DNA of 64,000 bases. Origin: Candidatus Hydrogenedentota bacterium. GTDB taxonomy: Bacteria > Hydrogenedentota > Hydrogenedentia > Hydrogenedentales > JAGMZX01. The stretch is from the NCBI GenBank assembly GCA_018005585.1, contig JAGMZX010000010.1, positions 830 to 64,829 on the forward strand. Direction: 5' to 3'. A model generated the notes under the pieces. It ran no database searches. It had not been told where the DNA came from and saw only the letters and a list, made by a program, of their open reading frames with translations. Every line of letters starts with the position of its first letter. Within the stretch, counting starts at the first letter, position 1. Positions 11,724 to 61,635 of the stretch are shown piece after piece. The position numbers were made by a program, and so were the translations under genes.

Positions 11724-12029
11724 TCAGCGGCGGGGTGGGCGCGGCGGCTCGAGTCTCTTATTGAGGCGGTATACGAACGCCAGGACTTCCGCCACCGCCC
11801 GGTACAGCGTCTCGGGGATCGGCGCGTCAATGTCCAGTTTGGCGAGCAGCCCAACCAGCGCGGGGTCTTCGTGCACGTGCACGTCGTGCTCGCGCGCAAG
11901 CTCGAGAATACGTTCCGCAATGAGGCCCGTGCCCTTCGCGACCACGCGAGGCGCGGCGTCTTGCGCCGCGTCATAGCGCAGGGCCACCGCCTTCCGCCGC
12001 CGCTCCGGTTCCTTTTCCCTTGCTTTCAT
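11724..12029 (-). CDS. FlhB C-terminal domain-like protein (EscU/YscU/FlhB autocleavage-domain homolog)
   Basis: 101 aa. The segment AVALRYD..APRVVAKGTGLIAERILELAREHDVHVHEDPALVGLL matches the FlhB/YlqH-type C-terminal domain. It is the last gene of the flagellar cluster and overlaps the fliK-like gene by 4 nt. Confidence 0.75.
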   Translation of the reverse strand: MKAREKEPERRRKAVALRYDAAQDAAPRVVAKGTGLIAERILELAREHDVHVHEDPALVGLLAKLDIDAPIPETLYRAVAEVLAFVYRLNKRLEPPRPPRR

Positions 12030-13213
12030 CCGCGCAAGTCCAATCCGCCGAAGCGCCGCATGATCGCGGCGGTTTCACGCAAGCGGTCACCGTCCCACAA
12101 AGCAGCGTCGACCGTGACGCGCCGATAACCCGCCGCGCACAGCGCCTCCGCAAGTTCGGGGGCATGCGCTCGGATGGCCTCGACCGCGTCGGGGTCCGTG
12201 GCGCGAAAACCGCAGCGGCAGGTGCCGCTGGCGACGCCGAGCGTAACCCAGAGGTCACCCATGCGCTCTGTGGAAACGTCAATGACAATGAAGACGTTGT
12301 CCTTGTCGAAGCCACGGCCACGTCCCGCGCCGATGAAATGCACCTGTGCGTGGCGCAGTCCGGCGTCCGGCGGCAGCGGCAGCTCGAGAAAAACGTAGGG
12401 ATGTTCGAGTCCGCGCAGGTTTTGCAGGGCGGCGCCGTCGAGACGTTCCTGCACGCGTTGCACCGCCGCGTCAAAGGAGCGCAATGCCCCCTGTGACCGA
12501 AGGAACCGGCGGAGCGGCTCGTGTCCCGCCAGCCGGGCAAGATACGTGGAGAGCAGTCCATCCAGCCCCTCCGGCCCGGCGTCCCCCGTCGCCGCCGTGA
12601 ACTGCACAAGCCGCGCCTCCGGACTGCGCGCCCGCGCCAGTTGCTCAAGCGCGGCCGCGAACGCGCGCGCGTCTCCCGAGGCAAGGGCGGCCAGCAACCC
12701 CAGCACCCCCTCCGTGCCCGGTGGCGGCGCCGCGCCTGCGGCCGTGGCCTGCGCGATCCAGGATTGAATCCGCGTCAAGTCCGCGCCGGCCGTGCCGCGA
12801 CCGAAAAACAGCGCCAGCAACTGGCGCAACGCCGGCGCGGACGGCGGAAGCATGCGCGGCGCAATGGCCTCGGCGGCGCCGGCGTGTCTGGTCATGCCCA
12901 GCGCGCGCAGCGCTTCCGTCAGGGCGGCGCGCAGCGCGGCGTCCGCCGCGCCCGGCGGCGCCTCCTGCGCGGCGGCGGCATGAGGCGTCACGCGCAGGGC
13001 AAGGCCCGCGCCGCTCTCGACAACCTCCACCTCCACGGCCTGCCCGGGCACGATACGCGCTGCGTTTTCGAGCGGGATGCGTGCGCCCGCGAGCAAGAGG
13101 ACCGGCTCGGCGCTGGTCCCGTGCACGGTTGCGTGGAAGGTCTGACCGGGCCGCAACGCGGAGGCCAGCACGTGCTGTCGCGCGATGGGAACAACCGGCG
13201 GGAGGGGGAACAT
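12026..13213 (-). CDS. flagellar hook-length control protein FliK-like
   Basis: It is Ala/Pro/Gln-rich with a central low-complexity region. The C-terminal segment (VFIVIDVSTERMGDLWVTLGVASGT..AVEAIRAHAPELAEAL) resembles the FliK C-terminal Flg_hook domain. Its position before the flhB-like gene is typical. Confidence 0.5.
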   Translation of the reverse strand: MFPLPPVVPIARQHVLASALRPGQTFHATVHGTSAEPVLLLAGARIPLENAARIVPGQAVEVEVVESGAGLALRVTPHAAAAQEAPPGAADAALRAALTEALRALGMTRHAGAAEAIAPRMLPPSAPALRQLLALFFGRGTAGADLTRIQSWIAQATAAGAAPPPGTEGVLGLLAALASGDARAFAAALEQLARARSPEARLVQFTAATGDAGPEGLDGLLSTYLARLAGHEPLRRFLRSQGALRSFDAAVQRVQERLDGAALQNLRGLEHPYVFLELPLPPDAGLRHAQVHFIGAGRGRGFDKDNVFIVIDVSTERMGDLWVTLGVASGTCRCGFRATDPDAVEAIRAHAPELAEALCAAGYRRVTVDAALWDGDRLRETAAIMRRFGGLDLRG

Positions 13214-13227
13214 TTCGGCTGCGCGCG

Positions 13228-14178
13228 TTACACGCGCTTCTGCCGGGCCAGACTCAGCATCAGCCGCACCTCGCCCTTGCCGATACCAAGTTCCCGCGCG
13301 ATTTGCGCGACGGACATGCCCGCCGCGTCGTACTCGACGACCCGTTGCCGGAGCGGGGCGAGCACGTGCGCCCCGTTGTCGCCTGGCCGCGGCAGCGGCG
13401 CATCGCTGCGCACGGCAGGTGCAGCCGCGGGTTCGATGTTCAACAGCGCCTGGAAGGCGCGGCGCGAGGCGTCGCGATCCTCAGGCGACGAGGGCGGCGC
13501 TGTTTCCTGTTCCGCCGCTGTTTCGCCCTCCAGGTCGTCGCCAACCCATTTCTCGAAGGAGCGTTGCTCTTTCGCCGCATCGGCATCGGTGGATGCGCGC
13601 AATTGCGCAATGACGGCAGACAGAGCAGCGGCGGCGTTCATGGTTTCGGGCTCGTGGGGCGGGACGTCCGCGTGACCAGCACCGAGAGCGCGCTCCGGTT
13701 GCGGGGACGGCGCCGGGGCCGCTCCCGTCTGCTGCTTCCGGGCATATTCTTCCACGACGATATCCTGCTGTGGCTGCGGCGGGGCTGAAGCGGCGCGCGA
13801 AGCCTGATGGATCTGCGCCAATTGCTGCTGTACGGCGCGCAGCGCCGCCTTCGCTCTCTCGATTTCGTCGGCAAGTGTCTGCGTCGTCTCATAGAGACGC
13901 ACATTCTTTTCAAGGCTCTGCGCGAGGACCTGCTTGACCCCGGCGATCTTGTTTTCCAGGTCCGTATTGAATTGGCGGGCCAGGTCTTTCTGCTGCCGCA
14001 CCACGTCGCGCATGGTCTGGAAGAGTATCGTGATTTCGGCCTTGTCGGTTTCGGTCTGGCGGCGGCGCTGCTGTTGGCGGCGTTCGTTCGCCGCATACGC
14101 GACAACAAGCACCGCGAAACTGGCGCACCCGATGATGCCAACGCCGAAAGAGGCCCACATCAACAGCGTTTGCAGCAT
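13228..14178 (-). CDS. membrane-anchored coiled-coil protein with C-terminal sigma-70 region-4-like HTH
   Basis: It has an N-terminal TM helix (MLQTLLMWASFGVGIIGCASFAVLVVAYA), a long coiled-coil/Q-rich region, and a C-terminal HTH (MSVAQIARELGIGKGEVRLMLSLARQK). Function is unknown. It is embedded in the flagellar cluster. Confidence 0.55.
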   Translation of the reverse strand: MLQTLLMWASFGVGIIGCASFAVLVVAYAANERRQQQRRRQTETDKAEITILFQTMRDVVRQQKDLARQFNTDLENKIAGVKQVLAQSLEKNVRLYETTQTLADEIERAKAALRAVQQQLAQIHQASRAASAPPQPQQDIVVEEYARKQQTGAAPAPSPQPERALGAGHADVPPHEPETMNAAAALSAVIAQLRASTDADAAKEQRSFEKWVGDDLEGETAAEQETAPPSSPEDRDASRRAFQALLNIEPAAAPAVRSDAPLPRPGDNGAHVLAPLRQRVVEYDAAGMSVAQIARELGIGKGEVRLMLSLARQKRV

Positions 14179-14221
14179 CTCCTCCCGTCCTTCCTCATCG
14201 CGCCGGCCGCCCGCGGCGCAC

Positions 14222-14545
14222 TCAAACCGTCACGTCGAGTTGGTGCTCATCCATGTCCGCCGGCGGCTGTTTGTGTTCATTTTTCGGGGCATTCTCGCCC
14301 TCCCGCTGCTCCCGCTTGCGCCGCCGCCGGCCCACATAGGGATTCGCCCGGCGCAGTTCGCGGTCCACCTGCTCGCTTTTCTGCTCGGTCTGCTGAACCG
14401 TCGTCTCCGCGTTGGCGTGCTGCTGCTGCTGGGCCGCGTGAGCGCGCTGCTGGGCCGCGAGCGACGCCCGGTCCGCGACCTGCTGGATGCGTTCCGCGGC
14501 ATGCACGCGCGCAATCTCGGTAAAGGGGTCGATCGGCTGGGGCAT
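14222..14545 (-). CDS. hypothetical Gln-rich protein downstream of fliA (possible flagellar regulatory factor)
   Basis: The start MPQPIDPF overlaps the fliA stop (ATGA). It is low-complexity and Q/R/E-rich. No family was recognised. The track ORF extends into fliA in an alternate frame. Confidence 0.4.
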   Translation of the reverse strand: MPQPIDPFTEIARVHAAERIQQVADRASLAAQQRAHAAQQQQHANAETTVQQTEQKSEQVDRELRRANPYVGRRRRKREQREGENAPKNEHKQPPADMDEHQLDVTV

Positions 14546-15315
14546 CACGATTCTCCGCGCATGACCTCGCGCAGCCGTTTCACCGCGGCGCTGTGTATCT
14601 GGCACACGCGCGATTCGGTAACTTCCAGCACAACGCCGATTTCCTTCAGCGTCAATTCCCGGTAGTAATACAAGTTTAGCACTTTTTGCTGCTGTTCCGG
14701 TAGCTCCAGAATCGCGTCCGCGAGCCGTTGCTGCCGTTCCTTGGCTTCCAGCAACTGGCTCGGCGTCGGCGATGCGGCGTCGCCCGTAACGTGCACCTTG
14801 CGGATTTCCTCCGCATCGGCGGCGGGCAGATACTCGTCAAGCGAGAGCACCTGCGCCGTCTGCAACTGGGCCACCGTCTCTTCGACGTGCTGCACCGTCG
14901 TTCCCAACGCTTCCGCAAGGTCCTCCGCGGACGGATCCCGCCCCTGCTGGTGCCGGAGCTTCTCGCGGGCCGCCCCGATTTTGCGCGCCATGTTTCGCAG
15001 GGAGCGCGGCGCCCAGTCCAGCGAGCGAATCTGGTCAATGATCGCGCCGCGAATGCGAATGGACGCATAGGTGGAAAACTTGATGTCCTGCGTGTGGTCG
15101 TAACGCTGGACGGCGTCGATCAGGCCCATTACCCCCCACCCCACCAAGTCGTCCATTTCAACATTCGACGGCACGTGGATCGCCATGCGCCCCGCGATGA
15201 ACCGGACCACGCGCATATAGTGCATGATGAGCCACTCGCGGGCAGCGTCGTCGCCCTGCTCCTTGTAGCGCACCCATAATTCCCGTTCATCCATATTGGG
15301 TAACGTCGTGGTCAA
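14545..15315 (-). CDS. fliA: RNA polymerase sigma-28 factor FliA/WhiG
   Basis: Region 2 (DLVGWGVMGLIDAVQRYD..KFSTYASIRIRGAIIDQIR), region 3 and region 4 (LKEIGVVLEVTESRVCQIHSAAVKRLR) are all present. At 256 aa the length is typical. Confidence 0.9.
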   Translation of the reverse strand: MTTTLPNMDERELWVRYKEQGDDAAREWLIMHYMRVVRFIAGRMAIHVPSNVEMDDLVGWGVMGLIDAVQRYDHTQDIKFSTYASIRIRGAIIDQIRSLDWAPRSLRNMARKIGAAREKLRHQQGRDPSAEDLAEALGTTVQHVEETVAQLQTAQVLSLDEYLPAADAEEIRKVHVTGDAASPTPSQLLEAKERQQRLADAILELPEQQQKVLNLYYYRELTLKEIGVVLEVTESRVCQIHSAAVKRLREVMRGES

Positions 15316-16256
15316 CGTAAGCTTTGGATCCTCTCCTTGGGACTGATGATTTCCGTGATGCGCAGGCCGAACTTCTCATCCACGACGACCACGTCGCCCC
15401 GGGCAATCAGCCGGTCGTTGATCAACAGCTCGACCGGTTCTTCGATGAGATGGCCGACTTCGACGATCGAGCCCGGGCCAAGCCCAAGGATATCGCCAAC
15501 GGCCATCTCTATCCGTCCGAGCCGGGCAGTCGCGACAAGCTTGATATCCAACACCATGTCTATATTCGGCGGGGTAACCGGCGCGGCCGCGGCCTGTCCC
15601 GGGGGCTGCAGCGCGGCTTCGCCGAATCCGCTGAGGATATCGGACATTTCCTCCGCGCTTAGCGTGGGCTCCGGCTTGGGCGCGGCGGCGCCGGCCAACA
15701 TCTTCGGAGGCACCGCCTGCTCAAACGTATCACTGAAGAGCAGCACGCCCGAGCCGCTGGTCCCCTCCGCGGAGAACGAAAACGGCGCGGCCGTTACGGC
15801 GCGGCCCAAATGGTCGAGCAGCGCGGCCGCGTCCTCGGCCACATGCTCCTCGATGCGGGTCTCCTCCATTCGCTCAATGGTTCGGCCCGCCGCTTCCAGC
15901 AGGCAGGTGACCGCGCCCCCCAAGGCGGATTCCGCCACTTCCCTGAGCACGGCGCGTTGCCCATCGTCCAGCGCGCTCATGACAACCGGCGCCTCTCCTT
16001 GCACCTGCGCGGCAATCTGCACCGCGTCCGCCACACGAAACAACAGAGCGACGCTTCCGCCGTCCTGGGCGACCCGAGAACTCATGCAGACGCCGAAATC
16101 GGCCAGATAGCCCGCTGCGCCCGCTGTATCCAGGGCGTCCGCTCCCATCACGTCGAAGCGGAACGTCTTGGCCAGCAACGCGTCGAGCACGTCGAACGCG
16201 CCCTTCAACAGGTGTTCCGCCACCACCTTTGCCACGGCAGACTGCATCACGGGCAC
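15312..16256 (-). CDS. fliY: flagellar motor switch protein FliY (CheC-like N-domain plus FliN/SpoA C-domain)
   Basis: The C-terminal SpoA/FliN domain reads LDIKLVATARLGRIEMAVGDILGLGPGSIVEVGHLIEEPVELLINDRLIARGDVVVV. The N-terminus carries a CheC-like repeat region. Confidence 0.85.
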   Translation of the reverse strand: MPVMQSAVAKVVAEHLLKGAFDVLDALLAKTFRFDVMGADALDTAGAAGYLADFGVCMSSRVAQDGGSVALLFRVADAVQIAAQVQGEAPVVMSALDDGQRAVLREVAESALGGAVTCLLEAAGRTIERMEETRIEEHVAEDAAALLDHLGRAVTAAPFSFSAEGTSGSGVLLFSDTFEQAVPPKMLAGAAAPKPEPTLSAEEMSDILSGFGEAALQPPGQAAAAPVTPPNIDMVLDIKLVATARLGRIEMAVGDILGLGPGSIVEVGHLIEEPVELLINDRLIARGDVVVVDEKFGLRITEIISPKERIQSLR

Positions 16257-27942: not shown

Positions 27943-28965
27943 ATGCTGCGACGCAACGCGGGACGCTATGGAGTGCTCGGGGCTCTGCTGCTTTGCCTCG
28001 CCGTCGCCTGCTCCACACTGACGCAGCAAAGCGGGGCGCGACGGGACCGCGGACTCCGCTTTCCGCATGAAAAGCACACGGAAGACATGGCGTGCACGGA
28101 TTGCCACGACATGACCGACCCCGAGGCCGTCATTCCAGACCATGACCTGTGCTCGACCTGCCACGACATCGACACGGACAACCCCGCGCCGGAGCAGTGC
28201 GGCCTTTGTCATACGCGCGAGGATTATTCGCTCGATGCGCGGGCGCGCGCGCTGACGGATGAGGTCAAGTTCAGCCACGACCCGCACGCGGCCGCGGAAC
28301 TGGAATGCGTGGCGTGCCACGAAAAGCCCGATGAGCGGCTTCTGCCGGACAAACCGATGAAGCCTTTCTGCATGGACTGCCACGCGCAGAAGAACCCGCG
28401 ATTGAACGCGTGCGAAGTCTGCCATGCAACCTGGAACAAGGACGTCGTGCCGCAGTACCGGTCGGGAAGCCGGATCCAGCACGACGCGCCGCAAATCTGG
28501 GCGCATTTGCACGGCAAGGAGGCGCGCATCGACCCTGCGTACTGCAAGCTCTGCCACGATACGGAGACGTCGTGCGAAGAGTGCCACCGCACCACGCCGC
28601 CGCGAGACCACACGGTCTCCTGGCGCCGCCAGGGGCATGGCTTCCACGCGACCATCGACCGCGGCAAATGCGTCGTGTGCCACGAAGAAGACTCCTGCAT
28701 CGAATGCCATGAGAACACGCAGCCCTCGTCGCATCGCGGTTCCTGGGGGCATCCGATGAACGGCCACTGCATATCGTGCCACTATCCGCCGGAGCGGACC
28801 AATTGCACGGTGTGTCATGAATCGGTGGAACACGACGGCGCCATGCCTTCGCCGCACGATTTCGGCCTGTATCCCGGAGCGTGCGGATTATGCCATCCGG
28901 GCGGCGTGCCCTATCGCGCGCCACACCTGCTGAACTCGACCGTGAGCTGCAAGACCTGCCATTGA
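27943..28965 (+). CDS. 14-heme c-type cytochrome lipoprotein
   Basis: There are 14 CxxCH motifs in 340 aa. The signal peptide has a relaxed lipobox (LCLAVAC). AGGAG sits before the ATG. The start is 20 nt after the beta-barrel gene stop. Confidence 0.85.
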   Translation: MLRRNAGRYGVLGALLLCLAVACSTLTQQSGARRDRGLRFPHEKHTEDMACTDCHDMTDPEAVIPDHDLCSTCHDIDTDNPAPEQCGLCHTREDYSLDARARALTDEVKFSHDPHAAAELECVACHEKPDERLLPDKPMKPFCMDCHAQKNPRLNACEVCHATWNKDVVPQYRSGSRIQHDAPQIWAHLHGKEARIDPAYCKLCHDTETSCEECHRTTPPRDHTVSWRRQGHGFHATIDRGKCVVCHEEDSCIECHENTQPSSHRGSWGHPMNGHCISCHYPPERTNCTVCHESVEHDGAMPSPHDFGLYPGACGLCHPGGVPYRAPHLLNSTVSCKTCH

Positions 28966-36693: not shown

Positions 36694-37710
36694 TCATCGC
36701 CCCGTTATGGCGTTCCACGTCTCGAAAACCTGGCGGACATTTTCGGGTTTGGCGCCGGGGCCGAACTCGCACTGGGCGATGCAGCCGCCGTTGTGCCACA
36801 GCCGGCGATGGACTTCGCGCACCGCGGCGTCGATCTCATCCGTAGTGGCCTCGGGCAGCAAGTGTTGCCGGTCGATCTCGCCCCAGAACGTGATCTTCCC
36901 CTTGAACGGCGCGAGATTCTCGACGCCCATGCAGAACAATTGCGAATTGACGGCGTCTATGCCAATCTCGACCAGGTGCGGGTAGATGGGCAGGATATAG
37001 CCGTCGGAGTGCATGAAAATCTTCTTGCCTGCGCCGTGCGCGATCTGGGCGTAGTCTCGGTAACGTGGCTTGAAATGCCGCTCCCAGAGGTCCGGGCTGA
37101 TCAAGAGGTTGCTCTGCGCGCCCCAGTCGTCCATGAATTGCAGCGAGTCCACGTCGGTCGCCGCCCACCGCTCAAAGACCTCGCAATAGAACTGATGCAG
37201 CGTGTCCATGAAACGCAGGAACCCCGGCGGCTCGATCATGAGGTCTACGTAGAGGTCCGCCGTGCCCCGGAGAAACTGGAGCCGCTCGAAAGGCCGCGCA
37301 CAGAACCCCGCCGTCACGAAGCAGTCCGTTTTCGCGCAGAACCTGTTGACCTGATCGCGTTCCATGGTCAGCCACTCGCGCGGGATGTGGACCTTGCCGA
37401 TGTCGTCGTCCCAATCCCGCACGAGCGGCCGCTTTACCTCCCCGATAACGCCTTCCTGGATATTGTCGAAGACGCAGCCCCACTCATCGACGTACTCGCC
37501 GATCTTGTGGGCATCGCCCCGCGTGGGCGGCGTCTCCCGCGGGAAACTGGGCGCGCCCACGATGTCCGGCGGAAAGTCGCGCTGCAACGCGTGCAAGACG
37601 TCGCCGTGGTGCATCTCGGCCCACGGCAGCGACCACAATTGACGCGGCGCGCGCGGCGGCCCCTCGAATTGCAGTGCCAGATACATAATCTCGCGCGGCG
37701 TGAACGCCAT
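36694..37710 (-). CDS. uroporphyrinogen decarboxylase (URO-D)-family protein (MtaA/CmuA-like)
   Basis: It has the URO-D-like TIM-barrel fold (..FMHSDGYILPIYPHLVEIGIDAVNSQ..). The start is set at MAFTPREI with an AGGAG RBS. The track ORF starts 11 codons earlier. Confidence 0.7.
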   Translation of the reverse strand: MAFTPREIMYLALQFEGPPRAPRQLWSLPWAEMHHGDVLHALQRDFPPDIVGAPSFPRETPPTRGDAHKIGEYVDEWGCVFDNIQEGVIGEVKRPLVRDWDDDIGKVHIPREWLTMERDQVNRFCAKTDCFVTAGFCARPFERLQFLRGTADLYVDLMIEPPGFLRFMDTLHQFYCEVFERWAATDVDSLQFMDDWGAQSNLLISPDLWERHFKPRYRDYAQIAHGAGKKIFMHSDGYILPIYPHLVEIGIDAVNSQLFCMGVENLAPFKGKITFWGEIDRQHLLPEATTDEIDAAVREVHRRLWHNGGCIAQCEFGPGAKPENVRQVFETWNAITGR

Positions 37711-37794
37711 AAACTTGTCTCCTGGTGGAACAACCGGCGACAAATGCCGGACAGGGCTCAGACGCGCCCGGGCAGCGTGCCTCCTTCGGCTGTA

Positions 37795-38049
37795 TCACAA
37801 CCGATCCATGGGCGCGCTGAAAGCCTTTCCCAATGGTTCGAATTCCCCCGTATCCTCCGCCGCCAGCTTCGACCGAACTTCCTCAAACCGCCTGACAACC
37901 TCGACCGCGTACAGGGTTTCACCACATCGCAGGCAGACTTCGGCGGGCGCGGTCATAACCGCGGTGTTTCTGCCGCCGCGCAAGAGCTTTTCCGTCGTCT
38001 GCGCCTTCATCTCACCGCCGCACACCGGGCACTTTGGAAAGGGCTTCAT
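37795..38049 (-). CDS. YgiT/MqsA-type zinc-finger protein (putative antitoxin)
   Basis: The YgiT-type zinc-ribbon arrangement CPVCGGEM...CLRCGE is present. The start MKPFPKC overlaps the stop of the upstream DUF4258 gene (ATGA). Confidence 0.65.
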   Translation of the reverse strand: MKPFPKCPVCGGEMKAQTTEKLLRGGRNTAVMTAPAEVCLRCGETLYAVEVVRRFEEVRSKLAAEDTGEFEPLGKAFSAPMDRL

Positions 38050-38360
38050 TGCTTTCTCCTGAACTTCCAATCGATCCACTTCTCCGGGTCAGGCCGGTAT
38101 ACCGTCACGAGCACTGCCCAAGCACTGGCTGCATTATACGCCCAAACGCTATGCACCGGCTCCCTGTCTCCGGTAAGACCGAGGACAAGACAACTCGGAT
38201 ACGGCCAATCCGAAGGATATTCTTCGATAATCTCGCCGACCAATACACTTTCAAGAATAGCATCCAGCAATAAATGGTCCGCGTTTGCCTCTTCATCGGC
38301 ATGATCAGACACACGAAACCTCCCATCCCGTATTGCTTGCTTTAGCGCGGTGATTTCCAA
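38046..38360 (-). CDS. DUF4258 domain protein (putative toxin partner of YgiT-type antitoxin)
   Basis: It matches the DUF4258 consensus [33 protein letters not shown]...[11 protein letters not shown]. The toxin-first order resembles MqsR/MqsA. Confidence 0.7.
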
Positions 38361-38395: not shown

Positions 38396-38812
38396 TCACG
38401 TGAGCTTCTTGCCGGTGGAACTTATCGAGAGCGCGGCGTGGAGCACTCCCTTGTGCCGGCGCAGGAGGGCCGCCAGTTCCTTGAGGCGCGACGCGCGGCC
38501 CCGGACAATCACGATCTCGGCGCACAACGCGTGGTCGAGGTGGATGTGCGTGGACGCCAGGATATCGTGGTGGAAGCCGTGCTGCACCTCGGTCAGTTTC
38601 TCGGAGAGGCCGCGCCGATGGTGATCGTACAACATCGTGATCGTGCCCACGGCCTCTTTGTCGTGTTCCCATTCCTGCTCGACCAGCCGCCCCCGAATCA
38701 GGTCCCGAATAAACTCCGAACGATTCTCATAGCGCCCCTCCTTGACCAGCTTTTCGAGTCGGTCCAGGAGCGACTTCTCGATAGAGAAACTCAAGCGCGC
38801 GACGCCGGACAT
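38396..38812 (-). CDS. nikR: nickel-responsive regulator NikR (RHH plus C-terminal metal-binding domain)
   Basis: The N-terminal ribbon-helix-helix reads [36 protein letters not shown]. The C-terminal domain has the high-affinity Ni-site residues (..[21 protein letters not shown]..). Confidence 0.85.
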
Positions 38813-38923
38813 GGTCTCGTCTCCTACCCGAAGGTTCGGCGGCAGTATACAGGCGCGCTGGCGGCGTATTCACGGCGTCCGTTCCGCCCCGCCACCACGC
38901 GCTTGCATTTCCATAGGCGGCGC

Positions 38924-38954
38924 TGGTATTATTTTCTTCGTATTCGTAATACCA
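38924..38954. promoter_or_regulatory. candidate NikR operator: perfect 8-bp inverted repeat TGGTATTA-N15-TAATACCA
   Basis: It lies in the nikR/DUF1559 divergent intergenic region, 27 nt upstream of the DUF1559 gene ATG. Its architecture resembles the E. coli NikR operator (GTATGA-N16-TCATAC). Confidence 0.4.
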
Positions 38955-38980
38955 ACGACCACCGGAGAAAGGAAGAACCC

Positions 38981-39943
38981 ATGAACCGCAAGTCGGGCTT
39001 CACGCTTATCGAACTGCTGGTCGTCATCGCCATCATCGGCATTCTCGCTGCGATCCTGCTGCCGGCGCTGGCCCGCGCGCGCGAGTCGGCCCGGCGTGCG
39101 AGCTGCCAGAACAACCTGAAGGAGTTCGGTCTGGTCTACAAGATGTACAGTGGCGAGAGCGAAGGCGAGCGCTTCCCGCCGCTGGCGCCGTTTGCGAATC
39201 CGGGCGGCGTGCCCATCTTTGCGGCCGCGGACCCTGCCGCGCTTTATCCCGAATATCTGAACGACCTGAATATTTCGCGGTGCCCTTCGGACTCCGGCGC
39301 GGACGGCGCCGGGCAGATGGTGGCGGGCCGCCTACCGGATGGCACGATCGAGGAACATATCGCGGCCGCCGAGGCGGCGGGCGACCAGGTAAGCCTTCGT
39401 TATTTCCTCGCCGCGGCGCTCAGCCGTTCGTACTGGTACCACGGCTTTGCCATGAGCAACATAGAGGAATTCTACGGCGTCTGGAACGGCACGGGCACGA
39501 GGCCGGTAACGGGCAACGCGGCGCCGGTGGGCGCGGGGCCGGTGATGATGCCCATCACACTGAAGGACTGGGACCCGGACATCACGCTTTCCACGAAACT
39601 GGCGTGGACAGCCATCCTTGGGACCGGCTCCGCGGGCGGCGATCAAGTGCTGCGCCTGCGCGAGGGCATCGAGCGGTTCTTCATCACGGACATCAACAAC
39701 CCGGCGGCAAGCGCGCAGGCACAGAGCACCCTGGTGATCATGTTCGACACCTTCGGGAGTTTCGGCGATGTGGCCAACGCTGCGGGCGGCGTCGTCTTCA
39801 ATCATATTCCCGGCGGCTGCAACGTGCTGTACATGGACGGCCACGTGGACTTCATCCGCTACAATACGGCGTTTCCGGTGATTGACGACAAGGAAAACAA
39901 CTACGGTATCCCGCGGCAGGTCGGCCACTACGGTCTGATGTAG
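38981..39943 (+). CDS. DUF1559-type prepilin N-terminal cleavage/methylation domain protein (pseudopilin-like)
   Basis: The N-terminus [47 protein letters not shown] is the hallmark of the Planctomycetota DUF1559 family. It also ends in the typical C-terminal tail ...HVDFI. The track ORF extends far upstream without support. Confidence 0.9.
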
Positions 39944-40017
39944 CACTGTCGCGTCCGTTCGTATTCAATCGCGCGGCGTCTTGAAACAAGGACTTGGCCC
40001 ATTTCAAGGAAGAGAAC

Positions 40018-40701
40018 ATGAAAACGATACGGCTTCCTGTCTTGTTTGCGCTTGGATGGCTGCTCGGCATCGCGGCGGCGGCACATGAGACCCCGGACGG
40101 CGTCCCGCACGAGCACGCCGAGGACGCGGGCGGGCCCACGTCCGTGTTTGCCCATTTCCCGACGGCCCCCGATTTCTACCGCGAGCCCGTAGCCGCGCTT
40201 ATCCGCGAAGGTCTTGTCGAGCGCTTCGGTGAAGACGAGTTTGCGGCAGTGGTGCTCAGCCACGAAATCCATCAGCATATCGGCATCTACACCATCATAG
40301 GCGCCAAGATGGGTGTGCGCGCGCGCGAATTGCTCGAAGCGCCTCGTCGCGCCGTCGAAGTAGTCGTGGAAACGCAGCCGGACACGCCCCCGGCCTGCGC
40401 GGTGGACGGGTTGCAGGCATCCCTGGGCAGCACCTACGGCCAGGACCTGATCCGGATTCAGCCGGTCGTCGAACGGGGCTTGACCGTCACCTTCACGCAC
40501 GGGGATAGACGGCTGCGCGTGGCGCTTAAAGACGGGTTCAGGGCGGAGATTCAGCGGATCGTCGAGACGAACACTGCGCAGCACGGCAATCTCTCACCCG
40601 CTTACTTCGAGGCCATCCGTGCAGCCAGCTACCGCATCTGGGCGGAATGGGACCGGGCGCAAATCTTCGAGGAGGACTGGCTGGATGCGGGAACGCAGTA
40701 G
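40018..40701 (+). CDS. secreted His-rich hypothetical protein (possible metal-binding; FmdE-like features)
   Basis: An AAGGAAGAG RBS is present. The signal peptide reads MKTIRLPVLFALGWLLGIAAAAHE. The N-terminus is His-rich (HETPDGVPHEHAEDAGG..FAHFP) and there is a SHEIHQHIGIY segment. Function is not established. Confidence 0.5.
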   Translation: MKTIRLPVLFALGWLLGIAAAAHETPDGVPHEHAEDAGGPTSVFAHFPTAPDFYREPVAALIREGLVERFGEDEFAAVVLSHEIHQHIGIYTIIGAKMGVRARELLEAPRRAVEVVVETQPDTPPACAVDGLQASLGSTYGQDLIRIQPVVERGLTVTFTHGDRRLRVALKDGFRAEIQRIVETNTAQHGNLSPAYFEAIRAASYRIWAEWDRAQIFEEDWLDAGTQ

Positions 40702-40787: not shown

Positions 40788-41984
40788 ATGCCAAAAACCG
40801 AGACACTACCCCGGCGTTATGAAGCATTCCGCAAGGACATCGCCATCGAACGGGTGGAAATGTTCCCGGTGCGGTATCCGACGGTGATGCGCTTCAAGTT
40901 CTTCGAGGGCCCGACGTCCGGGTCGGGTCGCGCGGCCATTCTCATCAAGATCACGGCCAGCGACGGGACCGTGGGCTGGGGCGAGAGCGTGCCCGTGCCG
41001 CGCTGGGGTTGCGAAACGTTCGAGAGCGCGCAGTGCACGTTGGAGCAATACCTTATCCCGATTATCACGGGGATGAATCCCTTTGACATCGAAGAAATCC
41101 ACCAGGCGATGAACGTCGAGGTGGCGAATTGTTTCTCGACCTGCGCGCCCATTACGAAGGCGGGTATCGACCTTGCGTTGCACGACCTCATTGGCCGCTC
41201 CGCGGGCAAGAACGTGGCAGCATTGTGGGGCCGGACACTGCCGGACGAGTTGACGTTAAGCTGGACGTTGAACCCGCGCGACTTGAACGAGATCGCGCCG
41301 CTCATTGACAAAGGAAAGGCGCGCGGTTACCGGCATTTCAACGTCAAGGTCGCTCCCGACCCGGAGTTCGACCTCCTGATGTGCCGCATGGTGAAGGAAC
41401 TGGTTCCTGATGGTTTTCTCTGGGCGGATGCGAACGGCGGCTATGAATTGGGGGTGGCGCTGGAGGTGGCGCCGAAGCTGGCGGATGCGGGCGTGGCGGT
41501 GCTCGAACAGCCGATCAAGCCGAACCGGCTTACCGGTTACCAAAAACTGAAACGGCAGGGCGCGCTGCCGACCATCATGGACGAAGGCGTCGTGTCCCCC
41601 GCGGACCTGCTCGAATTCGTCGAACTGGGCTGCTGCGACGGCGTGGCCATGAAACCAGCGCGCTGCGGCGGGTTGTGCTCGGCGCGCGGCCAGGTCGAGA
41701 TACTGCTGGACCGCGACATGTGGTTTCTGGGCAGCGGGCTCACCGACCCCGATGTGTCCCTTGCGGCTTCGCTCATCCCCTACGGCGCGTACGGGCTGCG
41801 CTACCCGGCGGCGCTGAACGGGCCGCAGTTCCTGGGAACGAGCGTGACCACCGAGCCGTTCCGGCCCGTCGAGGGCAAGGTGCGCGTGCCGAAGGGGCCG
41901 GGTCTCGGCATCGAGGTGGACGAAGAGGAGCTGGCGGCCCTGGTTGACGCCTCACAAGAGGCCCGCCGTGCGGGCGAGCCTTGA
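40788..41984 (+). CDS. enolase-superfamily enzyme (mandelate racemase/muconate lactonizing enzyme family)
   Basis: It has the capping domain plus a TIM-barrel with metal-ligand motifs (..KVAPDP.., ..WADANGGY.., ..LEQPI.., ..IMDEG..). Confidence 0.85.
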   Translation: MPKTETLPRRYEAFRKDIAIERVEMFPVRYPTVMRFKFFEGPTSGSGRAAILIKITASDGTVGWGESVPVPRWGCETFESAQCTLEQYLIPIITGMNPFDIEEIHQAMNVEVANCFSTCAPITKAGIDLALHDLIGRSAGKNVAALWGRTLPDELTLSWTLNPRDLNEIAPLIDKGKARGYRHFNVKVAPDPEFDLLMCRMVKELVPDGFLWADANGGYELGVALEVAPKLADAGVAVLEQPIKPNRLTGYQKLKRQGALPTIMDEGVVSPADLLEFVELGCCDGVAMKPARCGGLCSARGQVEILLDRDMWFLGSGLTDPDVSLAASLIPYGAYGLRYPAALNGPQFLGTSVTTEPFRPVEGKVRVPKGPGLGIEVDEEELAALVDASQEARRAGEP

Positions 41985-55135: not shown

Positions 55136-55470
55136 ACGCGAACCCTTTCACTCGCCCCTATCGGCACTAGACTGGCTCACCCGCCGCACATGCACGCCCC
55201 GCTCGGGGCGCACGTTTGACCTGTTCAGATACTACGGCAGCAGGCGCGCTTGTGTCAATCATTTCGAGGCAATACGGCCAGCACACGGTGAAAATACTTA
55301 TCCTTGCGGGGCTGTTCCGCGAACGCCGCGCACCTCATGGCAGCATACGCGCGCGGCAGATGAGCTACCAAATTGTCACTAATTATATGAAATATGTGCA
55401 TAGTGCTCACAAAGAACGCACTTGATGGGAAGAAAATCTGCCGTTCAGGTAGTTTCTAACAAGAAAGGAC

Positions 55471-55500
55471 TTGACTTGTGGCAACCGGTTTCAGTAGGAT
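55471..55500 (+). promoter_or_regulatory. candidate sigma-70 promoter for gltBD (TTGACT-18-TAGGAT)
   Basis: It lies about 100 nt upstream of the gltB start and is preceded by an AT-rich UP-like stretch (aaattgtcactaattatatgaaatatg). Confidence 0.35.
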
Positions 55501-55601
55501 ACGGGTCCAACGCCTATCGGTGCGGGCACCGAATCTTAGACCTGAGTACCGGTCTCGTTTGCAGACTCCATCGTTCAAACAGAAAGGCGGCGGTAGTGTA
55601 T

Positions 55602-58600
55602 ATGCGCACGACATGGCAACGAGGGATGTATGAGCCGAGCACGGAGCATGACGCGTGCGGCATTGGTTTCCTGGTGAATATTCGGGGAACGAAGAGCCAC
55701 GGAATTATCGACGACGGCGTGCGCGTATTGGTGAACCTGACGCACCGCGGCGCTTGCGGTTGCGACCCGGAAACGGGCGACGGCTGCGGCATGCTGCTCC
55801 AATTGCCGCACCGGTTCTTTGCGCAGGAGGCATCTGCGCTGGGATTCGACCTGCCGGAACCGGGGGCCTACGGCGTGGGCATGGTGTTTCTGCCGCGGGC
55901 TGCGTCGGCGCGCGCGCAGGCCGAGGCCCTGTTTGCCAAGACGATTGCGGAGAATGGGCAAGAGCTGCTGGGCTGGCGCGATGTCCCACTCGATTCCTCG
56001 AAACTCGGGTGGCTGGCTCGGGAGAACGAGCCCGTGATCCGGCAGGTATTCGTGAAAGGGGCGCGCGGGATTACGCCGGACGCACTCGAGCGCAAGCTGT
56101 TTGTCATTCGCAAGGTCGTTTCTCGGGACATGCGCGGTTCGGGCCTGGACGGCGCGGAGCAATTCTACGTGCCAAGCATGTCGACGCGGACGATAGTCTA
56201 CAAAGGGCTGATGCTGCCCGAAGCATTCCAGGTGTTCTATCTCGACCTGAACAATCCCCTGTTTGAGAGCGCGTTGTGCCTGGTGCACCAGCGCTACAGC
56301 ACGAACACGCTTCCTTCGTGGTCGCTGTGCCATCCGTTCCGGTTTCTGTGCCACAACGGGGAAATCAACACGTTGCGCGGGAACATCAACATGATGCGGT
56401 CGCGCGAGATGGCTTTTAGCAGCCCGCTCTTCGGCGAGGACATCAGCAAGATACGCCCGGTTCTGACGGAGGGGGCGAGCGATTCGGCCATATTCGACAA
56501 CGCATTCGAGGTGCTCGTGCATGGCGGACGTTCGGTCGAGCACGCGATGATGATGATGATCCCGGAGCCTTGGAGCGGCCATGAATCGATGCCGGACCAC
56601 AAGAAGGCGTTCTGCGAGTATCACGCGTGCAAGATGGAGCCGTGGGACGGACCGGCGTCGATCGCGTTTACGGACGGAGTGAAGGTGGGCGCGGTGCTCG
56701 ACCGCAACGGACTGCGTCCTTCGCGGTATTGGGTCACCAACGACGACCGCGTGATCATGGCGTCCGAAGTGGGTGTGCTGGACCTGCCCCAGAGCCGGAT
56801 CGTGAAGAAAGGGCGTCTCGAGCCCGGGCGCATGTTTCTGATCAACACGGCCGAGCAGCGCATCGTCGATGATGAAGAGATTAAGGAGACGCTGTCGCGG
56901 CGGCAGCCGTATCGGACGTGGCTGAACAAATACCGGACGATTCTTCTCAAGAATGTGCCGGATAAACAGCCGATCACCGAGTCCGCCCCGCTTTTCGAGC
57001 GGCAGATCATATTCGGGTACACGCAGGAAGACCTCGAACTGCTCGTCACGCCGATGGCGAAAGAGGGGAAGGAGCCGGTCGGCTCGATGGGCAATGACAC
57101 CGCGCTTGCGGTGCTGTCGCCGCGCCCGCAACTGCTTTACAGCTACTTCAAGCAACTGTTCGCGCAAGTGACGAATCCGCCTATTGATCCGATTCGCGAG
57201 GAGATCGTGATGTCCCTCGAAACGGACATCGGCCGCGAGTGGAACCTGCTCGACGAAGCGCCGGAGCATTGCGAACAACTGCACCTCTATTCGCCCATTC
57301 TCAGAAACGGTGAGTTGGCGAACCTGCGCCGGGTGATCAAGCCGGGGTTTCACACCGCAACCATCTCGACGCTTTTCCCTGTCGAGGCGGGCGAGAAGGG
57401 CTTGTCGCGTGCGGTCGACCGCATCTGCCGCGAGGCGGAAATGGCCGTGGAGCGCGGCGAGACGTTCCTCATCCTTTCGGACCGCGGCGCAGGGCCGCAG
57501 TGGGCGCCGATACCCGCGCTGCTGGCGTGCGGCGCGGTGCACGAGCATCTGGTCGCGGTGCGCAAACGTTCGCAATGCGGGCTCATCGTCGAAAGCGGCG
57601 AACCGCGCGAAGTCATGCATTTCGCGCTCTTGTCGGGGTACGGCGCCAGCGCGATCAACCCTTACATGGTCTTCGAGATCATTGCGGACCTTCTGCGCCG
57701 CGAGGTCATTACGGAGGAACAGCGCGGCCATGCCGAACACAACTTCATCAAGGCGATAGAGAAAGGACTGCTCAAGGTGATGTCGAAAATCGGCATCTCC
57801 ACGTTGCAGAGCTATCATGGCGCGCAGATTTTCGAGGCCATCGGCCTCGGCGAGGACCTGATTGACCGCTGCTTCTCCGGCACGCCGTCGCGCATCGGCG
57901 GCATCGGTATCCGCGAAGTGGCGAAGGAAACACTGATGCGCCACGCCATTGCGTATCCGCCGAAGCCGTCGCGCCGGCGCGAACTCGACCCGGGCGGCCA
58001 CTACCGGTGGCGGCAGCGGGGCGAATTCCATCAGTGGAATCCGGATACGGTCGCGTTGCTGCAGAAGGCCGCGCGCGCGAATCGGTGGGACACGTTCCAG
58101 CAGTTTTCGGAGACGGTGAACAGCCGCAACCGCACGCTGGCAACGCCGCGCGGGTTGCTCAAATTCAAGCAAGGGAACCCGGTTCCGCTTGACGAGGTGG
58201 AGCCCGCGAGCGAGATTGTGAAGCGGTTCTGCACCGGCGCCATGTCGTTCGGCTCCATCAGCAGGGAAGCGCACGAGACGCTGGCCATCGCGATGAACCG
58301 GATAGGCGGGCGCTCGAACACCGGCGAAGGCGGCGAAGACCCGCGCCGGTTCGAGCCGGACACGAACGGCGACTTGCGCCGCAGCGCGATCAAGCAGGTG
58401 GCATCGGGCCGTTTCGGCGTGACAAACGAGTACCTCGTGAACGCCGACGAACTGCAAATCAAGATGGCGCAAGGCGCGAAGCCGGGCGAGGGCGGCCAGT
58501 TGCCCGGGAACAAGGTGTTCCCCGAGATCGCAAAGGTGCGCTACTCGACGCCGGGCGTCGAACTGATCTCGCCGCCGCCGCACCACGACATCTATTCGAT

Positions 58601-60140
58601 CGAGGACCTCGCGCAACTTATTCACGACCTGAAGAACGCGAACGTCAACGCCAAGGTGTCCGTGAAGCTCGTGTCGGAAGTGGGCGTAGGCACGATCGCG
58701 GCGGGCGTATCGAAGGGCAAGGCCGACCTGGTGCTGATCAGCGGCCACGACGGCGGCACGGGGGCATCGCCCGTCTCGTCCATCAAACACGCGGGCCTGC
58801 CGTGGGAACTCGGTCTGGCCGAGACGCACCAAGTGCTGGTGCAGAACAACCTGCGCGACCGGATCCGCGTACAGACGGATGGCCAATTGAAGACGGGGCG
58901 CGACGTGGCGGTCGCGGCAATGCTCGGCGCGGACGAATTTGGTTTTGCCACGGCTCCTCTTGTGGTGAGCGGCTGCATCATGATGCGGAAGTGTCATTTG
59001 AACACCTGCCCGGTCGGCGTGGCCACGCAGGATGCCGAATTGCGCAAGAAATTCACGGGCAAGCCCGAGTATGTCGTGAATTACTTCTTCTTCGTCGCGG
59101 AAGAAGTCCGCCAGATCATGGCGCGGCTGGGCTTCCGCACCATGAACGAGATGATCGGCCGGGCAGACATGCTCGAGTTCGACCCGCTGCCCGAACACTG
59201 GAAGGCGAAGTACCTTGACTTTTCGCGCATCCTGTCCGCGGCAAAGCCCTGGCCCGGCGCGACCCTGTATCAGAGCAAGACCCAAGACCACGGGCTGGAC
59301 GGGGCGCTGGACTATGAATTAATGGAGAAAGCGAGGCCCGCGCTCGAGCGCAAGGAGCCGGTCCGGTTTTCCGTAACGATACGCAATGTGCACCGCACGG
59401 TGGGCACGATGCTGTCCAGCGAACTGACGCGGCGGCACAAACTGGGCATGTACACAGGTTCCCTGCCCGAGGACACGGTCTGGATCGACTGCGAAGGGCA
59501 GGCAGGTCAGAGTTTCGGCGCGTTTGCGATCCGGGGCGTGACATTGAGCGTGTCCGGTGAGGCGAACGACTACTGCGGCAAGGGCTTGTCGGGCGGAAAG
59601 ATTATCTTGCGGCCGCCGGCGGATTGCCCCATCGTTCCGGAAGAAAACATCATTGTGGGGAACGTGGCGTTGTACGGCGCCACCGGCGGCGAGGCGTATT
59701 TCCGCGGCATGGCGGGCGAGCGGTTCTGTGTTCGCAACAGCGGCGCCTGGGCAGTCGTCGAAGGGGTCGGCGATCACGGCTGCGAGTACATGACAGGCGG
59801 GCGCGCGGTGGTGATCGGCGGAACCGGCCGCAATTTCGCGGCGGGCATGAGCGGTGGTATCGCGTTTGTGTACGACAAGGCCGGTGACTTCGAACGGCGC
59901 GTCAACAAGCAGATGGTGGACCTGAAGCCGCTGCACGAGCGGAGCGTGCCCGAGTTGCGCTACCTGTTGGAGCGGCACGCGGAATATACGGGAAGCACCG
60001 TTGCCAGGAACCTGCTGAAAGAATGGGAACGTTCCCTGAAGCGGTTTGTCCGTGTTATTCCGAAGGACTACGCGCGGGTGCTGCGGGAAGCAGGGCAGCG
60101 TGACCAAGCGCGCGAGGAGATGACGCATGTTTCCCGATAA
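55602..60140 (+). CDS. gltB: glutamate synthase (NADPH) large subunit
   Basis: The amidotransferase N-terminus ([11 protein letters not shown]) is followed by the central, FMN/Fe-S (..GGTGASP..) and C-terminal GXGXG domains. The start is set at [23 protein letters not shown]. The track ORF starts at 55422. Confidence 0.95.
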
Positions 60141-61635
60141 AGCCCGTGCGTTTCTGACGTTCAACCGCGAATTGGCCCCCCATGAGCCGCCGGAAGAACG
60201 CTTGCGTCATTATCAGGAATTCACCCGTTCGCTGCCCGGAGAGAAGGTCCGGCAACAGGCGTACCGGTGCATGAATTGCGGGGTGCCGTTCTGCCACGGC
60301 GGCTGTCCGCTCGGAAATCAGATTCCCGATTTCAATGAGCGCGTAAAGGACGATGACTGGGCGGAAGCGCTGCGCATCCTGCATTCGACGAACAATTTCC
60401 CCGAGTTCACGGGGCGCGTGTGCCCGGCGCCCTGCGAAGGGTCGTGCGTGCTGGGCATCAACGAACCGCCAGTGGCCATCGAGATGCTCGAACGGGAGAT
60501 AGCAGACCGCGGCTGGGCCGAGGGCTGGATCCGCCCGGAAACGCCCGCGGCTCGAACGGGCAAGCGTGTAGCCATTATCGGCTCGGGCCCGTCGGGCCTC
60601 GCCGCGGCGCAGCAGTTGAATCGCGCGGGGCATACCGTGACCGTCTATGAGCGCGATGATGAACCCGGCGGCCTGCTCACGTACGGGATTCCGGCGTTCA
60701 AGCTCGACAAGGGCCTGGTCATGCGGCGGATACAACAGATCCGTGACGAAGGCGTCGAGTTCCGCTGCAACGTGTGGGTCGGCAAGAACGTGCCCGTGGA
60801 CGAACTGGAGGCGTATGACGCAGTGCTGATCGCCGCCGGCTCAACGAAAGCGCGCACGTTCGAGGGCATGGGCATTCCCGGCTCGCACCTGAAGGGCATT
60901 CACCTGGCAATGGACTTTCTACCGCAACAGACACGGCGTTTGCTGGGTAAGCCGGTCGAGGGCGAGGACATCCTCGCGACGGGCAAGAGCGTAATCGTAA
61001 TTGGCGGCGGCGATACGGGGTCGGACTGTGTCGGGACCAGCCTGCGCCAAGGCTGCAAATCGCTGGTGAACATCGAGTTGTTGCCCCGGCCGCCACTGGC
61101 GCGCGCGGCGGATAATCCCTGGCCGGAATGGCCGTTCGTGTACCGCACGTCGACGAGCCACGAAGAGGGCGGAGAACGGGACTTCTGCATCCTCACGAAG
61201 AAGTTCGAGGACGACGGCAATGGCAACGTGGCCGCGCTGCATGCAGTGCGCATTAAATGGAGTGACCCGGACCCAGCAGGCAGGCGCGCCATGACCGAAA
61301 TTCCCGGCAGCGAACTGCGAATTCCCGCGGAACTGGTCCTGATCGCCATGGGTTTCACGCAACCCGAAACAGACACGTTTATCGCAGACATGGGCCTGGA
61401 ACTGCAGAAGAACCGGTTCGGGCAAGCCGTCAAGGCTGACGACCAGCGGTACATGACCAGCCGCGAGGGCATATTTGCGTGCGGCGACGCGCGCCGGGGT
61501 CAATCGCTGGTCGTGTGGGCAATTTCGGAAGGCCGCGAGGCCGCGCGGGCGATTGACCTGTACCTCACGGGCTGCAGCGACCTGCCCGGCAAGGCCTCGT
61601 TCGGCTACGACACGCTGGCGCCGCGCGTCTCGTAG
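60127..61635 (+). CDS. gltD: glutamate synthase (NADPH) small subunit
   Basis: An Fe-S cysteine cluster is present ([20 protein letters not shown]; CPAPCEGSC). An FAD/NAD Rossmann motif is present ([14 protein letters not shown]). It overlaps the gltB stop. Confidence 0.95.

Follow-up and report, generated by a model that had tools for sequence, protein, structure and literature searches.

The stretch of DNA considered here, 64,000 nucleotides of contig JAGMZX010000010.1 from a Candidatus Hydrogenedentota bacterium (assembly GCA_018005585.1; hereafter the window), contains a nikR gene facing, across 168 bp of intergenic sequence, the gene of a prepilin-type protein of the DUF1559/HX9DG family. 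Between the two genes lies an inverted repeat with the geometry of a NikR operator, and the DUF1559 gene is followed by a gene for a secreted protein with an FmdE domain. We propose, with a probability of about two in three, that these elements form a NikR-repressed nickel-acquisition unit, the most constant member of which is the pilin-like DUF1559 protein. The predicted regulator and operator belong to well-known kinds; what is new is the predicted regulated module, in which a pilin-like DUF1559 protein is joined either to a secreted protein of the FmdE type or to a methyltransferase and an importer with a Cys-type ZnuA-like protein. The closest homologues of the window proteins are named Candidatus Hydrogenedentes or Hydrogenedentota, which shows that the host does not belong to the Planctomycetota.

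The preliminary description of this region had reported a perfect TGGTATTA-N15-TAATACCA dyad with an architecture similar to known NikR boxes, and had pointed to a NikR operator controlling a DUF1559 gene as a new lead. The dyad, which has no strand, is indeed found at 38924-38954, and the other two statements are supported by the comparisons below; the proposal also withstands the refutation test that had been set out with it. The sequence TGGTATTATTTTCTTCGTATTCGTAATACCA occurs a single time in the 64-kb window and was matched in none of 100 dinucleotide shuffles, while a repeat finder lengthens the arms to 11 nt (38921-38931 and 38947-38957, 91% complementarity); the dyad is evidently not a product of chance. 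According to Rodionov et al. (2004; PMC545781), NikR signals are 27-28-bp inverted repeats with the consensus GTGTTAC-[N13/14]-GTAACAC in delta-proteobacteria and GTATGAT-[N13/14]-ATCATAC in enterobacteria, and in some genomes the half-sites have the reversed orientation (PMC545781). The core in the window, GTATTAT-N13-GTAATAC at 38926-38952, matches this published 7-N13/14-7 geometry: it is an inverted repeat of the 27-28-bp class with half-sites of 6-7 nt, placed 13-16 nt apart, of the GTNNNAC type, and boxes of the window type are intermediate in sequence between the two published consensus boxes.

The distribution of the box among relatives carries most of the argument. Orthologous loci were collected by a profile scan of metagenome contigs with the DUF1559 N-terminus trimmed off, which gave 80 loci; clustering of their orthologue proteins at 90% identity resulted in 46 clusters, of which 45 were assessable, the sequence upstream in L116 (loci are designated by L numbers) being too short. 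An earlier scan of genome contigs with the full-length protein had latched onto the pilin motif FTLIELLVV, and the matches listed were paralogues only, at 35-45% identity; those 80 paralogue loci, comprising 788 kb from other lineages, were reused as a negative control. The 787 kb made up of the 80 orthologue loci and the window contain 49 matches to the pattern GTATTA-N15/16-TAATAC with no more than one mismatch, every one directly upstream of a DUF1559 orthologue and with a median gap of approximately 30 nt to the start codon. The consensus of the N15 class is tgGTATTAc-N11-tCGTAATACc. Altogether a box is present in 40 of the 45 clusters, including the variants in L117 (GTAGCA-N15-TGCTAC, approximately 5777-5805) and L121 (GTGCTAC-N14-GTAGCAC, approximately 5763-5790), and boxes of reversed orientation (GTAATAC-N14-GTATTAC) are found in several loci (L145, L152, L153, L158). 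Such variants of equal geometry suggest that NikR and its site have co-evolved within the phylum. Three further loci were reached via the FmdE protein (L172-L174), and all three have a perfect box and a DUF1559 orthologue directly before the FmdE gene. The control paralogue loci contain no perfect box and three one-mismatch boxes, none of them in position, and no NikR, FmdE, ZnuA, ZnuB, NikM or methyltransferase gene was found near any of the 80.

A connection to known nickel-uptake genes is provided by L177, a locus labelled Planctomycetota, the NikR of which is 62% identical to that of the window. It has two perfect GTATTAC-N13-GTAATAC boxes (5954-5980 and 6435-6461), one just upstream of nikR and the other upstream of a DUF4198(nikK)-cbiM/nikM-nikL(NF058648)-cbiQ-ATP-binding cassette (ABC) ATPase operon, that is, nikKMLQO. 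The same sequence therefore marks a canonical nickel energy-coupling factor (ECF) transporter operon, and the box is conserved, as in an operator, both before orthologous targets and before known nickel-uptake genes. The nikKMLQO operon closes with a gene for another prepilin-type protein (10422-11069, 215 aa), which has the C-terminal motif N-x-x-Y-x-DGH. L177 is thereby a second, independent pairing of a pilin-like protein with nickel uptake.

The nikR gene of the window (38396-38812, minus strand) encodes a ribbon-helix-helix protein of 138 aa, recognized by Pfam and NCBIfam as the nickel-responsive repressor: the N-terminal RHH_1 domain scores 6.6e-8, the C-terminal, ACT-like NikR_C domain 1.8e-27, and the whole protein obtains 148.8 bits against the NikR equivalog NF003381 (cutoff 105). 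Its best solved relative is NikR of P. horikoshii (2bj1, E 1e-30). At four positions, His78, His89, His91 and Cys97, the protein has the same residue as the aligned sequences of both H. pylori NikR (2ca9) and 2bj1. These positions are presumably the high-affinity nickel ligands His88, His99, His101 and Cys107 of H. pylori NikR, in a numbering read from the alignment. The regulator is thus predicted to be a NikR of the nickel type with all four ligand positions kept. In at least eight non-redundant clusters nikR adjoins the DUF1559 orthologue, either divergently as in the window or placed between the DUF1559 gene and znuA (L088).

The DUF1559 gene (38981-39943, plus strand, 320 aa) is divergent from nikR and starts with the ATG at 38981, preceded by a GGAG ribosome-binding site at 38964-38967. 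The dyad had been said to cover both the promoter and the ribosome-binding site. Its end is separated from the ATG by 26 nt and from GGAG by 9 nt, so the first part of the statement holds for the putative -10 element whereas the ribosome-binding site is clear of the dyad. The putative sigma-70 promoter as read from the sequence (TTGCAT at 38903-38908, 18 nt, TATTAT at 38927-38932, plus strand) scores below the threshold of the promoter scanner, and its -10 element lies inside the left half-site. Many orthologous loci have TTGACA 17-18 nt upstream of the left half-site, which therefore places the -10 element inside that half-site; the perfect TTGACA with a 17-nt gap occurs in 9 of 43 distinct site contexts. 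Towards nikR, a consensus scan revealed a promoter-like site on the minus strand, TTGGTA-16-AATAAT (38955 down to 38928; 9/12 matches), located wholly within the dyad. Since the box lies over both putative promoters, a tetramer sitting on it would occlude the DUF1559 promoter and possibly that of nikR itself. Autoregulation of nikR through the dyad is accordingly a possible feature of the system, and in L177, too, a box is directly upstream of nikR.

That the dyad serves as operator for some other regulator, or forms a hairpin in the 5' leader RNA, is very improbable. An Rrf2 gene does lie upstream in one lineage (L088), but nikR is the sole regulator that is repeatedly adjacent, the same box flanks nikR and nikKMLQO in L177, and the spacing of 13-14 nt between the 7-mers is a geometry specific to NikR (PMC545781). 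The dyad can be folded as a hairpin of -17 kcal/mol and its flanking bases vary in a symmetry-preserving manner; however, the energy is not significant (z = -1.4, 19 of 200 shuffles folding as well), the 7-nt core is kept in sequence beyond what pairing would ask for, and the left arm would remain untranscribed if the -10 element overlaps it. With a hairpin no better than that of shuffled sequences and no match in Rfam, the RNA element was set aside as a weak candidate. The binding of nickel-loaded NikR to the box and the resulting repression are strongly supported in silico, and this regulatory part of the proposal, a NikR box overlapping the promoter, appears supported as far as comparative genomics allows.

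The regulated protein combines a pilin N-terminus with a large globular domain. It carries a prepilin signal (N_methyl PF07963, 6.4e-10; TIGR02532, 34.7 bits, cutoff 16.3) with the processing motif G|FTLIELLVV and Glu at +5. Its membership in the DUF1559 family follows from the match to PF07596 (43.2 bits, cutoff 23.3), in which profile positions 2-36 only are aligned, and from the C-terminal H-X9-DG motif (TIGR04294 HX9DG, 26 bits, cutoff 19, residues 277-293), where H275, D286, G287 and H288 are invariant. The orthologues form a tight family of 60-85% identity. An AlphaFold (AF2) model built from 120 orthologues is confident, with a predicted local distance difference test (pLDDT) score of 90.6, and consists of a helix (residues 9-59) and a mixed alpha/beta globular domain. 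In a profile search of the PDB the N-terminal helix alone matches solved pilins, and for the globular domain no solved relative was detected, Foldseek giving no match in the PDB with E < 2. A full-length match to GspG or PilA pilins was not found either: TIGR01710 scores 34.5 bits against a cutoff of 88.85 and PilA_Myxo 38.3 against 400, in both cases over residues 1-57 only. Residues invariant throughout the family include Cys42, Cys101, Glu59, His275, Asp286 and His288, and those kept in the box-associated subfamily only are mostly aromatic, Gly/Pro or acidic (Asp104, Asp108, Asp135, Glu163, Asp303, His316). By this pattern a site for a metal or a metal chelate would be neither proven nor excluded. 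In the literature DUF1559 is treated as a large family without known function and as the largest paralogue group in planctomycetes, with 68 paralogues, two of them essential, in Planctopirus limnophila and 74 in Rhodopirellula baltica. The Pfam label of PF07596 is 'SBP_bac_10', and an earlier paper refers to DUF1559 as a putative solute-binding family. No mention of DUF1559 together with nickel or NikR was found in the literature searched.

Behind the box, the genes that follow the DUF1559 orthologue fall into a few recurrent contexts. Approximately 20 non-redundant clusters have genes for a ZnuA-like binding protein, a ZnuC ATPase and a ZnuB (ABC-3) permease after it, with gaps of 30-130 nt. 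In 10 clusters, including the window, a secreted FmdE protein is next; in L125 a CbiM/NikM-PDGLE fusion comes after this pair, and in L132 the pair precedes genes for a porin-like protein, a typical ZnuA and a permease of the ABC-3 type. The porin-like gene of L132 (7997-9328), between those of FmdE and ZnuA, has a weak OmpL-like beta-barrel match (BBP2, 2.6e-5, below cut-off), and its product is a candidate for an outer-membrane entry route. After ZnuB, a gene for a SAM (S-adenosylmethionine)-dependent methyltransferase is present in 24 loci, corresponding to 16 non-redundant clusters of DUF1559-ZnuABC operons. This protein of approximately 210-225 aa (Methyltransf_11/25) is encoded in L096, L101, L105, L109, L111, L127 (5348-6025), L087 (10185-10814) and others, and its best NCBIfam matches, all sub-threshold, are the DVU_1556 family and the corrinoid-protein-associated CpaM.

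The ZnuA-like proteins linked to the box (L105 6758-7762, L087 7235-8089 and approximately 35 other loci) are peculiar in having an invariant Cys in the motif CP[GS][HQ][YF]D, at the position where (D/N)PH is usual; the L132 protein, a typical ZnuA, has NPH. They also share [LI]HxWQ, a frequent xCxE with a second Cys, and [DE]NLQSG, and they match no NCBIfam equivalog (approximately 30 bits against a cutoff of 350). Among solved structures, 6r6k is their best relative (E 2e-6), followed by 6r3z (E 2e-5), which we take to be FpvC of P. aeruginosa; the deposited descriptions of both refer to adhesion or substrate binding. These Cys-type proteins may represent a distinct branch and a nickel-specific class of the cluster A-I binding proteins. 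A NikR-controlled importer of the ZnuA type was not found among the papers listed in a literature search on NikR together with ZnuA.

The same genes raise the question whether the metal is nickel at all. A system for cobalt, zinc or iron, with the NikR homologue or the importers mis-assigned by homology, would agree with the NCBIfam name of the ECF component ('cobalt transporter CbiM'), with the zinc, manganese and iron for which cluster A-I binding proteins are known, with the zinc that mostly occupied the FmdE site in crystals (PMC2954224), and with the weak resemblance of the methyltransferase to corrinoid-protein-associated enzymes. It is nevertheless improbable: all four nickel ligands of NikR are kept, the box matches NikR boxes and recurs before an operon with a NikL-family subunit, and the first-ligand motif of the ZnuA-like proteins is replaced by an invariant Cys, unlike in the typical ZnuA of L132.

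The FmdE gene of the window (40018-40701, plus strand, 227 aa) encodes a signal peptide and the almost complete FmdE core domain (PF02663, 6e-15; 55.9 bits, cutoff 22.9; profile positions 1-132 of 133), and the mature N-terminus is rich in His and acidic residues, with a HETPDGVPHEHAED stretch. A His-rich, nickel-binding N-terminus had been suggested for this secreted protein, without mention of the FmdE family. Secretion and the tail stand, but among 39 homologues the His/acid-rich tail is variable, strong in a few and absent in others, and the conserved candidate site is in the FmdE core, namely His85, His87 and Cys127. In an alignment to 2gvi these residues fall on the zinc ligands His16, His18 and Cys61, and E83, H85, H87, C127 and D130 are invariant in the 39 homologues. 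Solved FmdE members have a solvent-exposed site of His-x-His-x-Cys and a distal Cys which held mostly zinc, with partial nickel in B8FYU2_DESHY (PMC2954224). Compared with the site of B8FYU2_DESHY (His15, His17, Cys19, Cys55), three of the four ligands are kept and the equivalent of Cys19 is Gly89; the invariant Glu83 and Asp130 could substitute for the lost Cys ligand. The subfamily is tiny, with 39 clusters in a collection of 5.8 billion proteins, and a DUF1559 orthologue always immediately precedes the FmdE gene. In L174 (8926-9627 and 9669-11653) a second FmdE paralogue is located 1.3 kb downstream of the DUF1559-FmdE pair, beside a catalase and a Fur-family regulator.

Taken as a mechanism, the proposal runs as follows. 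A nickel-loaded NikR tetramer would bind the 27-28-bp repeat GTATTA(C/T)-N13/14-GTAATAC over the -10 element of the DUF1559 promoter, and probably over that of nikR too; because the box overlaps the -10 element, transcription would be blocked when nickel is sufficient. Under nickel shortage, the DUF1559 gene would be expressed together with the FmdE gene that lies 74 nt further downstream, and their products would serve nickel uptake. In related Hydrogenedentota the orthologue heads one of two types of operon behind the same box: one with the Cys-containing ZnuA-like protein, ZnuC, ZnuB and the SAM methyltransferase, and another with FmdE and then a NikM/CbiM-type ECF component (one locus) or a porin-like gene and a ZnuA/ABC-3 importer (another locus). 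The membership of DUF1559 and FmdE proteins in nickel acquisition appears supported by their recurrence in operons, behind the same box, with three importer contexts. By analogy with other accessory binding proteins, we infer that the DUF1559 protein, processed by a prepilin peptidase, would either be held in the inner membrane by its pilin helix or be built into a pseudopilus, and that its globular domain would capture nickel, as such or as a chelate, in the periplasm or further outside and hand the metal over to the importer of the inner membrane that the given genome encodes. The periplasmic FmdE protein would bind metal at His85/His87/Cys127 and may act as a nickel chaperone or buffer.

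Several observations weigh against this proposal. The box is absent in 5 of the 45 assessable orthologue clusters, and approximately six clusters have neither ZnuABC nor FmdE downstream of the DUF1559 gene (e.g., L134, L128). The box-associated DUF1559 subfamily has no convincing nickel-type His/Cys cluster of its own, His275, Asp286 and His288 being family-wide. Nickel specificity does not follow from homology to CbiM-type components or to cluster A-I binding proteins. In the comparison of nikR neighbourhoods, which had been recommended as a check, the nikR of L177 has the box and nikKMLQO, and three close homologues (L175, L176, L178) are orphans without a box nearby. Finally, the unit has no importer gene within the 64 kb available from this genome. 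Neither tblastn searches (with ZnuABC and NikM as queries) nor Pfam scans covering the majority of its long open reading frames (ORFs) revealed a canonical nickel transporter (NikABCDE, NikMNQO, NiCoT, HupE/UreJ) in the window, and the Pfam scans of these ORFs, including the central 20 kb, found no genes for nickel enzymes. The claim that no nik/ABC transporter is nearby is thus true for the window, but the operons of most relatives carry a ZnuABC-type importer and in one case a NikM/CbiM gene.

Some of these points would also fit a real NikR control of a DUF1559 protein that takes no part in uptake, being instead a pilus or surface subunit that responds to nickel, with a role in adhesion, motility or envelope remodelling, or else a co-regulated substitute that is independent of nickel. 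The subfamily without a specific His/Cys cluster and the several loci in which box and gene stand alone, with no transporter or FmdE downstream, speak for such a role, and NikR regulons elsewhere include non-transport genes, e.g., a predicted Fe-only hydrogenase (PMC545781). We regard it as unlikely, given that the DUF1559 gene heads importer operons in approximately 20 non-redundant clusters with gaps of 30-130 nt, that a second prepilin-type gene of unrelated length closes the canonical nikKMLQO operon of L177, and that the 80 paralogue loci are without metal genes.

The regulatory part of the unit is similar to the NikR operators of E. coli nikABCDE and of delta-proteobacterial nik(MN)QO (PMC545781): the regulator combines ribbon-helix-helix and NikR_C domains with four nickel ligands, the repeat is of the 7-N13/14-7 form and lies at the promoter of uptake genes, and reversed variants exist. 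Unlike in those systems, the first regulated gene encodes a prepilin-type DUF1559 protein and not a transporter subunit, and the half-site sequence is lineage-specific. As an extra extracytoplasmic, non-permease protein in the metal-regulated operon of an importer, the DUF1559 protein resembles NikK, NikL and NikN of NikMQO (PMC545781), and the accessory role proposed for it resembles that of AztD and ZinT in zinc ABC importers; AztD hands zinc to AztC (PMC6689063). It differs from NikK/NikL/NikN and AztD in having no kinship with them in sequence or known fold, in its type IV pilin signal and helix and in its three importer contexts, and any metal binding by the DUF1559 protein is putative. 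The Sulfolobus bindosome, in which sugar-binding proteins of ABC transporters have class III (pilin-type) signal peptides (PMC3047682), offers a parallel for a protein that has a pilin-type N-terminus and is linked genetically to an ABC importer. The bindosome, however, is archaeal, handles sugars and consists of conventional binding-protein folds (PMC3047682), whereas the DUF1559 units additionally include a ZnuA-like binding protein as a distinct component, and their neighbourhoods showed no assembly genes.

With GspG and PilA pilins the DUF1559 protein shares the G|FTLIELL site, Glu at +5 and a helix of approximately 50 residues, its N-terminal 60 residues matching both GspG/PilA models and PDB pilins, but its globular domain of approximately 260 residues is without a detectable solved relative and the scores are far below the family cut-offs. 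The FmdE protein has the alpha+beta core together with the His-x-His plus distal Cys of the FmdE/FwdE family (2glz, 2gvi, 3d00; Axelrod et al., 2010; PMC2954224), and departs from the solved members in being secreted, in having no C-terminal zinc ribbon, in the change of the third ligand from Cys to Gly and in the variable His/acid-rich tail. The ZnuA-like proteins of the relatives match Pfam ZnuA and pair with an ABC-3 permease and an ATPase, as do cluster A-I proteins (ZnuA, MntC, TroA, AztC, FpvC), but they have the invariant Cys motif and the frequent second Cys and sit under a NikR box; they are not encoded in the window.

Regarding the surroundings of the unit, no terminator-like sites were found between the DUF1559, FmdE and mandelate racemase/enolase-type (MR/MLE) genes. 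The enolase-type gene (40788-41984, plus strand) was dropped as a member of the unit, since the closest relative, the 85%-identical L092, is the sole one to share it. Directly downstream of nikR is a toxin-antitoxin-like pair, in which the gene of a DUF4258 protein (38046-38360, minus strand) overlaps that of a zinc-ribbon MqsA-like antitoxin (37795-38079, minus strand); a MazE/PIN pair is located directly upstream of nikR in L177. A gene of the URO-D family (uroporphyrinogen decarboxylase/methyltransferase-like) is found close to the unit in the window (36694-37743, minus strand) and another directly upstream of the DUF1559 orthologue in L134 (4077-5096, minus strand), possibly as residual synteny. 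In one lineage (L103, L107 and L109) the DUF1559-ZnuABC operon has the ruvB-ruvA genes just upstream (-1.8 to -2.8 kb), and in L178 (6442-8070) these genes are next to the orphan nikR, a placement which hints that nikR and the DUF1559-ZnuABC operon were once neighbours there. Other parts of the window (12026-16256, minus strand; 27943-28965 and 55422-61635, plus strand) contain flagellar genes (FliK-like, FliN, a sigma-70-family factor) and genes for a multihaem cytochrome c7-type protein, the large and small subunits of glutamate synthase, several glycoside hydrolases and a sulfatase, none of them nickel-related.

A conserved cis-element and the arrangement of genes in dozens of genomes connect one tight DUF1559 subfamily with a particular regulator and operator and with defined transport partners. 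This is the first functional clue for DUF1559, which is among the largest protein families of unassigned function, and it makes that function experimentally approachable. The reconstruction of NikR regulons is at the same time extended to the uncultured phylum Hydrogenedentota, and two possibly new kinds of nickel-handling protein come into view, a Cys-bearing branch of cluster A-I and a secreted protein with the FmdE fold. More tentatively, and with considerable doubt on our part, DUF1559/HX9DG proteins in general might be substrate-capture subunits of a pilus or pseudopilus uptake apparatus, each paralogue being tuned to a nutrient, with the NikR-controlled subfamily as the nickel or nickel-chelate member. 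If true, this apparatus would be a bacterial counterpart of the archaeal bindosome, one that feeds nickel-uptake parts not recognized before, namely the ABC importer with the Cys-type ZnuA-like protein and the periplasmic chaperone of the FmdE fold.

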